A DNA stretch of 20,000 nucleotides from IMG/VR virus record IMGVR_UViG_3300030085_002155, one strand, 5' to 3'. Made by a program: the position numbers and the translations under genes. Within the stretch, counting starts at the first letter, position 1. Every line of letters begins with the position of its first letter. The notes beneath the pieces are model-generated. The model saw only the letters and a list, made by a program, of their open reading frames with translations. It was not told where the DNA came from and searched no databases. This DNA comes from an uncultured virus (IMG/VR IMGVR_UViG_3300030085_002155) (taxonomy: Duplodnaviria > Heunggongvirae > Uroviricota > Caudoviricetes). Positions 5,103 to 16,515 of the stretch are shown here, piece by piece.

Positions 5103-7274
5103 ATGTCTAACCACGAAGTCAAAGGGACTCTCGCCCGACTGATGGCCACGGAAAATCTAATTGTGGAAACCAAGAACGTCAGCACCGCTTCCTTTGATGT
5201 GGTCAGTCGTATCTTGACCCTGCCTAACTGGGAGAAGGCGAATAACGTTGTATATGATCTGTTGGTTGGTCATGAGGTCGGACACGCCCTCTACACGCCT
5301 GAGGCGGATCTCCGCAACTGTCGTGATATTAATCCATCATTCATCAATGTTGTTGAAGATGTTCGCATTGAAAAACTGATGAAACGCAAGTTCCCTGGCT
5401 TGCGAAAGACGTTTTACAATGGATACCAACAGTTTCATGAAAATGACTTTTTTGAACTCGATGGCAAGTCTGTTGATAATATGAGTCTAGTTGATCGTAT
5501 CAACATTCATTTTAAAATTGGCAATTTTATTGATGTAAAATTTTCTGAGGATGAAAAATCAATCGTCAAAGGTGTTGAATCTGTCGAAACGTTTGAAGAC
5601 GTTGTTCACTGGTCCAAAATTCTCTGGGATTACTGTCAAAATGCAAGACATCAAGAAAAAATTAAAGAAGGAGGTGAACAGCCTACGAACCAAGACGAAG
5701 AATCTTCATCCGATTCTGAGAATCCTAGTCCTTCTATTCCTGATTCCACTGGTGGTTCTAGTGATCCCTCCACTCCTAGTAGCGACGACAGCACTCCTGG
5801 TGATCCTGGTGAAGGCGATCTGGGTGATGATGACCTTCCTAGTATGGATGGTGGTGGGGTGGATTCTGGTCACCCTGATATCGATTCTGTTCTGACTCAG
5901 GACAATCTTGATAAGGCTCTAGAGTCTTTAAACTCCAGGCACGGTTTGGAGTCTAGTTATGTCGAAGTTCCAAAAATGAACCTTGACAAAATTATTGTGT
6001 CTAATAATGAGTGTTCTAATCAAATCAAACTTCATTTTGATACGCAGGAAAAACTTGCTCCTGGGTGTTATGAAGCCGTGGACATGGAATACTCCAAGTT
6101 CAAAAAATCAACCCAGAAAGAAGTTTCGTATCTTGTCAAAGAGTTTGAATGCAAAAAATCTGCTGATAGTTATCGCAGAACTCTCACTGCCAGAACTGGA
6201 TCTCTAGACACCACGAAACTTCACACATATAAATTCAATGAAGATATTTTCAAGAAAATTTCTGTGGTTCCTGACGGCAAAAACCATGGACTGATCTTTG
6301 TTCTTGATTGGTCTGGTTCTATGGGCCGAGTTCTTCATGACACTGTATGTCAACTAATCACTCTGGTTTGGTTCTGTAAGAGAGTTGGCATTCCCTTTGA
6401 CGTATATCTTTTCACTAATGACTGGACTCAATGTAGAGTTCAACATGATAATTATGAACCAGAACATTATGATCAGGTAGAGAATGCTTTTCATATTCCC
6501 AAGTATTTCTCTATGGTGAATATTTTGACCAGTAAAGTTCGGTCCTCTGAACTTGATAGTCAAATCAAGAATCTGTACAGGATTTCTTATTATTACGGTT
6601 CATCGTATGGAGTCTCATATCAAATTCCTGATCAAGCAGGACTTTCTGGAACGCCTCTGAACGAGGCTGTCATTAGTCTGAATCAAATTATTCCAGAGTT
6701 TCAGAAGAAGAATGGTGTTCAAAAAGTAAACTGTGTTATCTTGACTGACGGTGAGGCCTGTTCTTCTAAGAAATGTAAGACAGTCACACGCCGCAGTCGA
6801 TTTGATCTCAATGATGCATATACCACGATGATACATGCTAGTATTCCCGGTGGTTCTTATATTCGTGATCGTCAGACAGGACATACACACTCTACTGAAG
6901 GTCTTTCCTACTTTGGAGATATCACTGCAGCGTGTTTGCGGCAACTTAAGACTAGATTTGGAAATAGTAATTTTATCGGTATCCGTCTCATCTCTGGTTC
7001 ATCTGAACTTTCTTCTTTCTTGAATCGACATGTTGAATATCCTAAGAGTATTGAATGCCGTAAGATCTGGAAAAAAGAAAAATCTTTCTCTATAAAGACT
7101 GATACTTATGATCGATGCATCGCAATCTCAACCACTACTCTTCGGAATGATTCGACTTTTTATGTGAATCCAGATGCATCTAAGGCACAGATCAAAAGTG
7201 CTTTCAAGAAATCTCTCAACAGTAAGAAACTAAATAAAAAAGTATTGACCGATTTTATTGAAGTAATTTCATGA
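5103..7274 (+). CDS. CobT-like protein: N-terminal HExxH metallopeptidase-like domain, acidic linker, C-terminal vWA (MIDAS) domain
   Basis: HEVGH followed by NVVEDVRIE. D/S/G/P-rich linker at about aa 190-262. MIDAS elements VLDWSGSM, SGTPLNE and ILTDGE. Confidence 0.85.
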   Translation: MSNHEVKGTLARLMATENLIVETKNVSTASFDVVSRILTLPNWEKANNVVYDLLVGHEVGHALYTPEADLRNCRDINPSFINVVEDVRIEKLMKRKFPGLRKTFYNGYQQFHENDFFELDGKSVDNMSLVDRINIHFKIGNFIDVKFSEDEKSIVKGVESVETFEDVVHWSKILWDYCQNARHQEKIKEGGEQPTNQDEESSSDSENPSPSIPDSTGGSSDPSTPSSDDSTPGDPGEGDLGDDDLPSMDGGGVDSGHPDIDSVLTQDNLDKALESLNSRHGLESSYVEVPKMNLDKIIVSNNECSNQIKLHFDTQEKLAPGCYEAVDMEYSKFKKSTQKEVSYLVKEFECKKSADSYRRTLTARTGSLDTTKLHTYKFNEDIFKKISVVPDGKNHGLIFVLDWSGSMGRVLHDTVCQLITLVWFCKRVGIPFDVYLFTNDWTQCRVQHDNYEPEHYDQVENAFHIPKYFSMVNILTSKVRSSELDSQIKNLYRISYYYGSSYGVSYQIPDQAGLSGTPLNEAVISLNQIIPEFQKKNGVQKVNCVILTDGEACSSKKCKTVTRRSRFDLNDAYTTMIHASIPGGSYIRDRQTGHTHSTEGLSYFGDITAACLRQLKTRFGNSNFIGIRLISGSSELSSFLNRHVEYPKSIECRKIWKKEKSFSIKTDTYDRCIAISTTTLRNDSTFYVNPDASKAQIKSAFKKSLNSKKLNKKVLTDFIEVIS

Positions 7275-14478: not shown

Positions 14479-14758
14479 CAAATGTTTGAGTGGATCTGTT
14501 GACTCGGTTTTGTTTGCTAATGAGATGAATCTTAGTCATTATCTCGACAAAGATATGCAATATTCTTTTTATCTAAATAGTCTGAGGAAAAGAAAGAGAT
14601 TCTCCCCTTGGCTCCGAAAGGATAAAGTCCAGGATCTAGAATGTGTCAAACAATACTATGGTTATAGTAATGAGAAGGCATCTCAAGCTCTGAAAATTCT
14701 TACCAAAGAACAGATTAACTTTATTAAACAACGACTTGATGTTGGAGGAATGAAATGA
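14372..14758 (+). CDS. gp62: gp62 clamp loader, small subunit
   Basis: ELKDWLNSIN..K, YAPFIVNKCLS, FANEMN, RKRKRFSPW, VKQYYGYSNEKA..AL.IL. Directly before regA. Confidence 0.93.
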   Translation: MTLELKDWLNSINFTKKDLTEGDPEAIKKYAPFIVNKCLSGSVDSVLFANEMNLSHYLDKDMQYSFYLNSLRKRKRFSPWLRKDKVQDLECVKQYYGYSNEKASQALKILTKEQINFIKQRLDVGGMK

Positions 14759-15207
14759 GTGGTAGCGCTGATTTTGGTGTAACTTGGGATCCCAACCAAA
14801 TGGTTGAGATTGTTCTGAGTGAACCAGATGATTTTTTGAAGGTTCGTGAGACACTGACACGAATTGGAGTTGCATCCAGAAAGGAGAAGAAACTCTATCA
14901 ATCTTGTCACATCCTGCACAAGCAGGGTAAGTATTATATTGTTCACTTTAAGGAGTTGTTTGCTCTTGACGGCAAACACGCTAACCTCACTGTGAATGAT
15001 GTTCAACGTAGAAACCGTATTGCTCAGTTGTTATCTGACTGGGGACTTATTACGGTAGTAGACCAGAACGATGTATCGGATGTTGCTCCGCTCAACCAAA
15101 TCAAAGTTCTTGCCTACAAAGAAAAAAATGAATGGACTTTAGAAACCAAGTATAATATTGGTAAGAAGAAGTCTGGTGAACAAAGAGAATCTAATGGCGA
15201 AAGTTAA
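14755..15207 (+). CDS. regA: RegA translational repressor
   Basis: EPDDFLKVRETLTRIGVASRKEKKLYQSCHILHKQGKYYIVHFKELFALDG...RRNRIAQLLSDWGL. GGAGG Shine-Dalgarno upstream. Confidence 0.97.
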   Translation: MSGSADFGVTWDPNQMVEIVLSEPDDFLKVRETLTRIGVASRKEKKLYQSCHILHKQGKYYIVHFKELFALDGKHANLTVNDVQRRNRIAQLLSDWGLITVVDQNDVSDVAPLNQIKVLAYKEKNEWTLETKYNIGKKKSGEQRESNGES

Positions 15208-15835
15208 TTGGCATCCATGGAGACCTGGGGATGATAATCATCCTCTTTTCATTGATCAAGTTTACATAGGACCAAAGAAATATTTTGATACGGAAGATTT
15301 TTCTTCCTATGATTTCTATCATTGTCCTGCTTGGAATTCTTGGGCAAAAAATACTTGGGTTTTTTATTCCCAGCTTGATTGGAATGTTGAATTGATTGGT
15401 GGTCAAGTTCATGTTCACACTGATCATAGTCATTTCAATGAATTGATGGGTGACATTCAGGTTGTGAATGACGAGATGATCATTCAACTAGACCCACTCT
15501 GCTTATTGTGGACCAATAATAAAAATATTTGGTTGGAACAATTACCATACCCTGGTTTGGAAATCATTCCTGGTCAGTTTAAATTGGGTAATTGGACTCG
15601 TACATTGTCTTTGGCGTTTAGGACTAAACATCTAAACATCAAACGTGGAGATCCTATTTTTATGGTTAGGTTTAATGGTGCTGGTCAAAATTATGATCTG
15701 TCAAAAACAAAACCCACAGAGAAAATTATAAAAACCGCAGAGAAAAATCTTGGTTTGAAGAAATATCTACCCGGAAAGTCCTGGGAATTGTCAACAAAAG
15801 AAACGAAATGCCCTTTCTCGTTTCTTTGGGTATAA
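15194..15835 (+). CDS. Hypothetical protein (possible dUTPase-like beta fold, DUF6065-like)
   Basis: Probable start ATG 15194 (ORF track uses TTG 15158). Motifs CPAW, IIPGQF, IKRGDPIFMVRF, C-terminal KCPF. Family call is tentative. Confidence 0.7.
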   Translation: MAKVNWHPWRPGDDNHPLFIDQVYIGPKKYFDTEDFSSYDFYHCPAWNSWAKNTWVFYSQLDWNVELIGGQVHVHTDHSHFNELMGDIQVVNDEMIIQLDPLCLLWTNNKNIWLEQLPYPGLEIIPGQFKLGNWTRTLSLAFRTKHLNIKRGDPIFMVRFNGAGQNYDLSKTKPTEKIIKTAEKNLGLKKYLPGKSWELSTKETKCPFSFLWV

Positions 15836-15838
15836 ATA
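15831..15838 (+). promoter_or_regulatory. T4-type late promoter (gp55-dependent) upstream of the candidate sRNA
   Basis: Exact TATAAATA, overlapping the stop codon of the upstream ORF. Confidence 0.7.
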
Positions 15839-15842
15839 ATAA

Positions 15843-15932
15843 CGTCGCTTTCGTGCGCGACACGCTACAAAACGGAATATACGCTACTTACACTTAACCA
15901 AAAGGGAGAGGTTTCCGAACCTCTCTTTTTTT
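15843..15932 (+). ncRNA. Candidate ~90-nt late small RNA
   Basis: Bounded by TATAAATA and a strong terminator, with no ATG inside. 5' hairpin GTCGC/GCGAC (15844-15861); ACGCTAC twice (15862-15868, 15881-15887). 5' end is estimated. Confidence 0.55.
15900..15932 (+). terminator. Intrinsic terminator, possibly bidirectional
   Basis: AAAAGG-GAGAGGTT-(TCCG)-AACCTCTC-TTTTTTT: perfect 8-bp stem, 7-T tail, A-run upstream. Confidence 0.92.
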
Positions 15933-15941
15933 GTCTTTTGT

Positions 15942-15949
15942 TATAAATA
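15942..15949 (+). promoter_or_regulatory. T4-type late promoter for hsp20
   Basis: Exact TATAAATA just after the terminator, about 60 nt before the hsp20 ATG. Confidence 0.85.
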
Positions 15950-15953
15950 GGTA

Positions 15954-16010
15954 TGAACGCCGTAAGGGTTCACAAAATACAAACTCGCTTTTATAGGAGC
16001 TACTATCATG
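15954..16010 (+). promoter_or_regulatory. Structured hsp20 5'UTR, ROSE-like RNA thermometer candidate
   Basis: Hairpin 1: TGAAC-g-CC-(GTAA)-GG-GTTCA (15954-15972). Hairpin 2: CTCGCT (15984-15989) pairs with SD AGGAG (15995-15999) with a bulged G. Confidence 0.6.
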
Positions 16011-16454
16011 GTACACCCAGCACCTGGGATGCAGAGGTACAGTACTGCCAACATTCAAAAGTTTTTGAATGACATTGACAGATACTCTATCGGTATGGAT
16101 GAATGGTTCAATAGATTTGATACCCTGCATCAGACGGAACAGAATTATCCCCCTTTCAACTTAATCAAAGAATCTAATATTGAGTTTAGACTTGAGGTTG
16201 CTTGTGCGGGATTCAGGAAAGGCGAACTCAATGTGTACTCAGAGTCGGGTAAATTGTTTGTTGAAGGACAAACAGAATCCGAATTTGAAGAGACAGAATA
16301 TGTACACAGGGGTCTCGCCAAGAGAGCGTTCACACGAACTTGGACACTCTCTGATGACGTGGAGGTTGGAGACGTAAACTTTGAGGATGGACTTCTGATG
16401 GTCAAGTTAAGGCGGATCATTCCTGACCACCAGAAGAGAAAAGTTTACCTCTAA
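16008..16454 (+). CDS. hsp20: Small heat shock protein Hsp20 (IbpA-like)
   Basis: SIGMDEWF, NYPPFNLIK, LEVACAGF, YVHRGLAKRAFTRTWTLSDDVEV...FEDGLL.V.L.RIIPDHQK: alpha-crystallin domain. AGGAG Shine-Dalgarno. Confidence 0.96.
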   Translation: MVHPAPGMQRYSTANIQKFLNDIDRYSIGMDEWFNRFDTLHQTEQNYPPFNLIKESNIEFRLEVACAGFRKGELNVYSESGKLFVEGQTESEFEETEYVHRGLAKRAFTRTWTLSDDVEVGDVNFEDGLLMVKLRRIIPDHQKRKVYL

Positions 16455-16482
16455 ATAGTTCTACCCTGCATGTCATGCGGAT

Positions 16483-16515
16483 GGGGGAAGTCGTTTGACT
16501 TTCCCCTCTTTTTTT
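16483..16515 (+). terminator. Intrinsic terminator after hsp20
   Basis: GGGGGAAGTC-(GTTT)-GACTTTCCCC 10-bp stem (one G-U) followed by TCTTTTTTT. Confidence 0.9.

Follow-up and report, generated by a model that had tools for sequence, protein, structure and literature searches.

Introduction

To our knowledge, the base-pairing small RNAs described in phages and bacteria have mRNAs or other small RNAs as their targets. Among antisense systems, CopA/CopT and RNA I/RNA II each use a short RNA with its own promoter and terminator that pairs discontinuously with its target, with a YUNR-type hairpin loop as the likely first contact. The putative cyanophage RNA analysed here shares these features; it is encoded by a lytic phage, unlike CopA/CopT and RNA I/RNA II, and is predicted to target host rRNA in trans, whereas those RNAs target an mRNA or primer RNA in cis. 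The snoRNAs (C/D and H/ACA guides, and U3/U8-type chaperones) also place two arms on two flanks of an rRNA site. The cyanophage RNA differs from them in its bacterial host, in having no C/D or H/ACA boxes and no known protein partners, and in being a phage-encoded RNA of about 75-90 nt with an intrinsic terminator.

Natural RNAs that are complementary to rRNA or bind ribosomes have also been reported. Chloroplast AS5, whose overexpression lowers 5S stability, is cis-encoded, fully complementary and organellar according to the cited sections of its report (PMC3017836), whereas the cyanophage RNA is viral and would act in trans by partial complementarity to 23S helices 70-71. The Staphylococcus aureus RNA antitoxin SprF1 binds ribosomes and lowers translation; it is part of a toxin-antitoxin pair and binds via a purine-rich 5' stretch, and the cited sections make no mention of rRNA pairing (PMC8158120). 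T4-like cyanophages carry other non-coding RNAs, namely wcaG, manA, glnA, PhotoRC-II and abiF (PMC10665884, PMC9964418) and CfrI (PMC2984593), which the cited sections describe as cis-regulatory leaders or as antisense to a phage gene. The cassette that we describe sits in a phage intergenic region and so is not of the cis-encoded antisense type of AS5 and CfrI. Our search of the open literature found no report of a phage RNA pairing with rRNA, and lists of unnamed phage motifs may include this RNA without a function. The cassette has the marks of an sRNA gene: its own promoter at a fixed distance, an intrinsic terminator, structure kept by compensatory changes and no conserved ORF. Its RNA matches no Rfam family, yet it is predicted to work like a loop-presenting antisense sRNA.

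Results

Gene setting and anatomy of the cassette

The window, by which we mean the whole 20,000-nucleotide stretch of uncultured viral DNA analysed here, is from a T4-like cyanophage, judged by gene content and order. The genes run from the clamp loader through regA, an inserted gene, the cassette, hsp20 (coding region 16008-16454) and two DUF6561-type genes to DNA polymerase. Synechococcus phages Bellamy and S-SM2 have a matching gene order, and every one of the region's DNA relatives (125 records) is a Synechococcus or Prochlorococcus phage. The DUF6065-like gene at 15194-15835 is an insert between regA and the cassette, and relatives carry other inserts at this place. The features of the region are collected in Table 1.

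Table 1. Features at and around the small-RNA cassette (positions in the window; 23S positions in E. coli numbering)
Feature	Positions	Strand	Remark
regA translational repressor	14755..15207	+	Commonest upstream neighbour of the cassette in relatives
Inserted gene, function unassigned (phrog_17480, DUF6065-like lead)	15194..15835	+	Stop overlaps late promoter
T4-type late promoter NATAAATA	15831..15838	+	Overlaps TAA stop of upstream gene
Predicted small RNA, 89 nt	15844..15932	+	Start placed from promoter spacing; family median about 75 nt
5' hairpin, stem GTCGC/GCGAC, loop 15849-15856	15844..15861	+	Inner G fixed across family
Invariant loop segment	15848..15857	+	Exact 10-nt antisense to Synechococcus 23S rRNA 1963-1972
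First ACGCTAC	15862..15868	+	CGCTAC (15863-15868) antisense to 23S 1930-1935
3' arm: GGAAT antisense to 23S 1938-1942, second CGCTAC to 1930-1935	15873..15887	+	
Intrinsic terminator, 14-pair stem (15900-15931) and T run	15900..15932	+	Upstream mRNAs end here as well
Second late promoter, conserved leader and hsp20	15942..16454	+	Separate downstream unit

A first-pass annotation of this DNA had proposed a self-contained late small-RNA cassette here, with a transcript of about 90 nt, a length that agrees with our prediction. Its elements are all where it placed them: the late promoter TATAAATA at 15831-15838 and a second copy at 15942, the GTCGC/GCGAC hairpin, the pair of ACGCTAC motifs (the second at 15881-15887), the terminator and a stretch free of ATG (15839-15932). 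These are the only two copies of TATAAATA in the window, a number not beyond chance in 20 kb (36/200 shuffles reach 2); the late promoter consensus of phage S-PM2 is NATAAATA (PMC2984593). The predicted fold of 15844-15932 consists of exactly the two hairpins and the unpaired middle that had been described between them, with a z-score of -4.15 to which the terminator is the main contributor (0/200 shuffles). The loop segment contains a UUCG motif of the YUNR type. Within the 3' arm, 15874-15878 match 23S 1938-1942 and 15882-15887 match 1930-1935, and its CGGAA fits 23S 1955-1959 too.

Membership and conservation of the RNA family

Conservation across relatives gives the self-contained cassette good support, and we consider it very likely that the cassette is a real, widespread and uncatalogued cyanophage small-RNA gene, with its transcription predicted from promoter and terminator. 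The three sequencing runs that were aligned, of five listed, consisted entirely of contigs and placed no RNA cover on the cassette. A search of viral contigs with a pattern built on the hairpin and first repeat returned at least 120 matches. The same loop was present in 91/120 matches listed, and the 29/120 without it were dropped before counts were made. Among the matches listed were 57 distinct relatives, 70-89 nt in length, that ended in a terminator; in 56 of these 57, TAAATA lay 4-5 nt upstream of the stem, although the pattern did not require it. A second pattern omitted the loop; after 87/121 matches without the exact core (most of them unrelated) were dropped, the loop was unchanged in the relatives retrieved. 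Loci chosen by RegA protein alone revealed a second form of the element, subtype B. The curated set comprises 110 distinct cores from 269 loci, 52 of subtype A (the window's type) and 58 of subtype B. Membership of this set required the promoter, loop, GGA and T run, so the invariance of those letters within it is imposed.

As MAFFT misaligned the stems, a script was used to count the stem pairs, with swapped strands as the control: a 5' stem of at least 5 bp is found in 103/110 cores compared to 364/8608 swapped-strand controls. The stems include GTCGC/GCGAC, GAGACC/GGTCTC, GTGCC/GGCAC, GCGATC/GGTCGC, GTCAC/GTGAC and others, and a terminator-like end is found in 105/110 cores. The hairpin of the first-pass annotation is therefore conserved, being kept by compensatory change; the doubled ACGCTAC that it emphasized is a trait of subtype A only (twice in 39/52 subtype A and 0/58 subtype B cores). 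The first copy is shortened to CTAC, or missing, in subtype B. Common to both subtypes are the loop TCGTGCG, a short (C)TAC and GGAA.

In 72/110 loci the promoter shares bases with the TAA that ends the upstream gene. In a control in which regA relatives were picked by protein only (3/80 loci skipped), TAAATA occurred at the regA stop in 20/20 loci with the element compared to 5/57 loci without it (Fisher p 4e-14). As TAAATA tracks the element, the promoter is no by-product of the regA stop codon, a chance origin that the first-pass annotation had allowed for. The gene upstream of the cassette in 103 cases was regA (63), gp32 (4) or another gene (36), with psbA, psbD, tail sheath (gp18) and more identified by their ends among the last. 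Being found behind unrelated genes, the cassette moves as a unit. Single-base indels are frequent, which rules out a conserved peptide.

With a sequence-only model, we found a single copy in each of five genomes taken from BLAST hits. With strict filters, 4/12 further genomes were positive (P-HM2, also from a BLAST hit, P-SSM4, P-SSM7 and Syn1), and the same model and filters did not detect the RNA in Syn9, S-PM2, P-SSM2, S-SSM7, S-RSM4, S-CRM01, HTVC008M or T4; among ten further cyanophages it went undetected in six under these filters. Queries with subtype B retrieve 235 and 232 phage records, including many resequenced isolates and a few chance matches. Rfam 15 gave no matches at the gathering cut-off in the window or in the P-HM2, Bellamy and S-RIM2 loci, and the best sub-threshold scores cover the terminator only. 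An exact-pattern search of host-type genomes (GTDB) gave two unrelated matches, neither with a promoter or terminator.

Several variations were seen among family members. P-SSM4 carries a degenerate copy (L698:1500-1575) with a longer stem and a shortened loop match. At L123:2504-2629 (Syn19_156), a 41-codon hypothetical gene in GenBank lies over the cassette and is probably a false gene call. Many family terminator loops hold TTGAC, followed 3' by TATAAT, so the loop appears to double as the -35 box of an early-type promoter for the next gene; in the window, the late TATAAATA occupies the site where relatives have this early-type promoter.

Complementarity to host 23S rRNA

The first-pass annotation missed that, by sequence comparison, the invariant bases are complementary to host 23S rRNA 1930-1975. 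The targets compared were E. coli rrlB and then cyanobacterial/plastid-type operons, with E. coli numbering throughout; the Synechococcus reference operon is one whose flanking proteins bear Synechococcus names (L457). The complementary bases of Synechococcus 23S rRNA lie around what we take to be helices 70-71, names and limits being as we assign them, and it is quite probable that the cassette RNA pairs with this site. The 50-nt segment 23S 1919-1970 holds 15 family 8-mers in antisense, making it the top rRNA segment; in the 5.1-kb Synechococcus operon the next-best segment holds 5 and the sense orientation 6, and shuffled targets reached at most 9 (0/150 as good as 15). Each subtype separately ranks this segment first, with scores of 10 and 11 compared to shuffled maxima of 8 and 9. 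Scanning both strands of four phage genomes turned up one A/T-rich segment with an equal score of 15, in Syn9, a phage without the RNA; chance can therefore yield such a value at the scale of a whole genome.

The two subtypes, and two variants of subtype B, reach one 23S target with different sequences. The loop matches 1963-1972 in both subtypes, and the 3' arm is directed at 1930-1942 in subtype A compared to 1948/50-1961 in subtype B, where the variants ACCC (which skips two A) and TTAC (contiguous) reach the same target. By this comparison, the letters flanking GGAA switch with the 23S flank targeted: the base after GGAA is T in 39/52 subtype A cores and C in none, and is C in 51/58 subtype B cores and T in none, with TC preceding GGAA in 57-58/58 subtype B cores. 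The longest antisense match falls within 23S 1925-1980 for 104/112 cores, which are related to one another and were chosen by their loop. In the copy of P-HM2, at about 5890-5950 of GU075905, two exact runs of 12 and 11 bases span 23S 1950-1973 with one base left out. The loop fits the cyanobacterial C1963 and A1971 better than the E. coli letters, with an A opposite A1971, a mismatch, in 12/110 cores.

In accessibility-aware cofolding, this region came first among 336 scanned segments for 4/4 RNAs; for S-RIM2 the listed segment has rank 2, beaten by no distant one. The models predict that subtype A clamps both flanks of an intact helix 71, with a second 23S site nearly tying (-19.2 vs -19.4), and that subtype B forms a near-continuous duplex on 23S 1948/50-1973. 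In the S-SM2 and P-HM2 genomes, we found no antisense partner scoring above 10 except the gene's own opposite strand. Across 3.3 Mb of fetched loci, all peaks of at least 12 were family members, pattern-selected look-alikes or 23S, and unrelated peaks reached at most 11.

A conserved exposed segment complementary to the target is found at the level of the family and is weak for the window's sequence taken singly, as 46/400 shuffles in a two-segment test and 15/400 in a three-segment test do as well as the window RNA. Across RNAs, the two-segment test gave 0-11/400 for five of subtype B and 20-46/400 for five of subtype A; the three-segment test gave 6-27/400 for subtype A and was uninformative for 4/5 of subtype B. 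Coverage by five-mers overlapped the null. We rejected unconstrained duplex energy as a discriminator, since 0-9 of 25-34 shuffles were as good per RNA; by this measure the best site lay elsewhere for 4/8 RNAs, and plain duplex energy chose a different 23S site for the window RNA and was beaten by 3/33 shuffles. As the cores are related, the independent evidence amounts to a handful of lineages; subtypes A and B are two lineages, not 110 independent events.

An overly strict scan of the window plus four genomes for promoter-terminator cassettes showed no general enrichment of rRNA matches (14 cassettes, one with a match of at least 11 nt; shuffle mean 0.38). A cyanobacterial plasmid that we examined has no 23S. 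We also considered a loop-to-GGAA pseudoknot, and the sequences speak neither for nor against it: both sides are nearly invariant, and a T/A end change has its counterpart in one lineage but lacks it in others.

Cassettes after hsp20 and the hsp20 leader

In 60-70 distinct relatives, a further promoter-terminator cassette follows hsp20, and its front is antisense to Synechococcus 5S over up to 12 bases. Five loci (L011, L276, L279, L297, L561) have a 5' extension with 12-14 bases antisense to the 16S tail (about 1497-1510). The k-mer test for this 5S-type cassette was modest (6 and 7 vs a shuffled mean of 3.3 and maximum of 7). The cassette is present in S-SM2 (L735:1620), Syn9 (L718:4135) and S-PM2 (L725:4974) and, in the Bellamy locus, has no Rfam match at the cut-off. 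The window carries its own second TAAATA-hairpin-terminator cassette after hsp20, at 16452-16515 (z -5.0), with two look-alikes (L007, L262), and we found no clear rRNA match for it.

The hsp20 leader (15951-16010) is kept across cyanophages, with a hairpin, an A/C-rich spacer, CTCGCTT opposite the Shine-Dalgarno sequence and a bulged G. This arrangement resembles that of ROSE heat-shock thermometers; ROSE_3 scores 15 bits on the leader (E 0.78), far under the cut-off, and the leader folds no better than shuffles. The GCTACT that had been pointed out behind the hsp20 Shine-Dalgarno sequence is present at 15999-16004, and does not hold up as a meaningful echo of the repeat, as CTAC occurs there independently of subtype (12/32 subtype A loci vs 17/32 subtype B loci). 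Since this CTAC and the RNA share one orientation, the two cannot pair.

Discussion

From the computed gene anatomy, conservation and complementarity, we lean slightly towards a late sRNA that would be transcribed from the phage genome and pair in the cell with free or immature 50S subunits, keeping them out of service. The late promoter would yield a stand-alone RNA, and highly expressed mRNAs probably also leave this RNA behind as their 3' end. With strongly expressed genes upstream of it, the cassette would deliver the large RNA amounts that such a role needs. The hairpin loop would contact 23S 1963-1971 first, pairing would extend into the stem and the 3' arm would take the other flank, with subtype A capturing 1930-1942 while helix 71 stays folded and subtype B capturing 1948/50-1961 with helix 71 opened. 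This part of 23S lies buried in 70S ribosomes and is accessible in free or immature 50S, so such particles are the most likely target. Because both subtypes would open helix 70, a bound subunit should not join 30S. The RNA would thus hold particles back from maturation or subunit joining, and they could be parked, or, at times of phage demand for nucleotides, passed to turnover. Use of host RNase E of the P-SSP7 type is said to be a precedent for harvesting host RNA.

Published data on this region, as far as the cited sections report them, bear on these steps. Helix/loop 70 is the cut site of the toxins MazF-mt3 and MazF-mt6 and is required for subunit association, and MazF-mt6 cuts its site in the 50S subunit and not in 70S ribosomes (PMC5408214), which suggests that the reachable substrate is a free or immature 50S. 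An RNase E cut after 1942 initiates 23S decay, and free subunits trigger that decay (PMC4931109). Parking or diversion to turnover is, by a narrow balance, the outcome that we regard as most likely; against parking, blocking ribosomes late in infection looks costly.

The main rival explanation, which we consider unlikely, is that the same pairing protects free 50S from RNase E or a host MazF-like toxin by shielding or splinting the helix 70 loop, so that ribosomes are preserved for late phage translation. Subtype A fits it best: its RNA pairs across 1938-1942, with modal letters reaching 1946 and one mismatch at U1943, and, in the cited sections, 1938-1942 is where RNase E initiates (PMC4931109) and MazF-mt3 and MazF-mt6 cut (PMC5408214). 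As subtype A covers the 1942 cut site, shielding would suit it better than decay. Cofolding of three subtype B RNAs also predicts that 1941-1945 or neighbouring bases form a new hairpin, but subtype B has no pairing to 1934-1947. Helix 70 is needed by active 50S subunits, and both subtypes open it, so a shielding RNA would have to come off again.

It is less probable still that the RNA binds a protein (RegA, a DUF6561 protein or a host factor) or an mRNA and that the 23S match is coincidental. Proteins typically bind single-stranded repeats and GGA, regA lies upstream in most loci, the single-sequence statistics are weak and a chance segment equalled the k-mer score. The first-pass annotation had proposed an sRNA that may sponge RegA or the Sm-like proteins, or target host mRNAs. 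Against a protein-titrating sRNA, of the CsrB/RsmZ type or a sponge for RegA, the repeat is absent in all subtype B cores and unlinked to the hsp20 motif, so it is neither family-wide nor tied to that site, and with the hsp20 echo incidental the RegA sponge is unsupported; presence of the cassette behind gp32, gp18, psbA, psbD and others likewise leaves no tie to RegA. The 3' arms of the two subtypes differ and yet fit one 45-nt stretch of rRNA, and the S-SM2 and P-HM2 genomes offered no antisense partner scoring above 10 other than the gene's own opposite strand.

A snoRNA-like guide or chaperone, holding 23S open for modification or repair or steering late 50S folding, is very improbable. 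About two A are left unpaired in both subtypes, and 23S has modified bases at 1939 and 1962; however, the unpaired positions are not the same (1936-1937 in A, 1952-1953 in many B), C/D and H/ACA boxes are missing from the invariant alignment columns, and the cassette has no fixed partner gene alongside. Equally improbable is that no separate RNA exists and the element is a 3' UTR or DNA element of the upstream mRNA, or an rRNA mimic read from the other strand: the frequent overlap of promoter and stop and a terminator that serves upstream genes too are set against the tracking of TAAATA with the element, its fixed spacing, unrelated upstream genes, and a promoter and T run that both indicate the + strand.

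Returning to pairing with 50S subunits, the post-hsp20 cassettes raise an even chance that T4-like cyanophages carry a set of RNAs that pair with host rRNAs and decide whether idle or unfinished subunits are parked, protected or recycled. Such a set may, with similar odds, target late-folding, subunit-facing sites, namely 23S helices 70-71 and, through the post-hsp20 cassette of relatives, 5S and the 16S tail.

The complementarity suggests that the virus probably uses RNA to take hold of parts of the host ribosome directly. As the target is both the start of 23S decay and a toxin cut site, the fate of host ribosomes in infection becomes testable, and cultured carriers exist (P-HM2 on MED4, S-SM2, S-SM1, S-RIM2, Bellamy and Syn1). 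If true, pairing at this site would offer a lead from nature on how to reach the 50S interface by antisense. Host ribosomes are a large store of nucleotides and phosphorus in the ocean's most abundant photosynthetic cells, and the RNA would, if this reading is true, represent RNA-based viral control of the ribosome itself.
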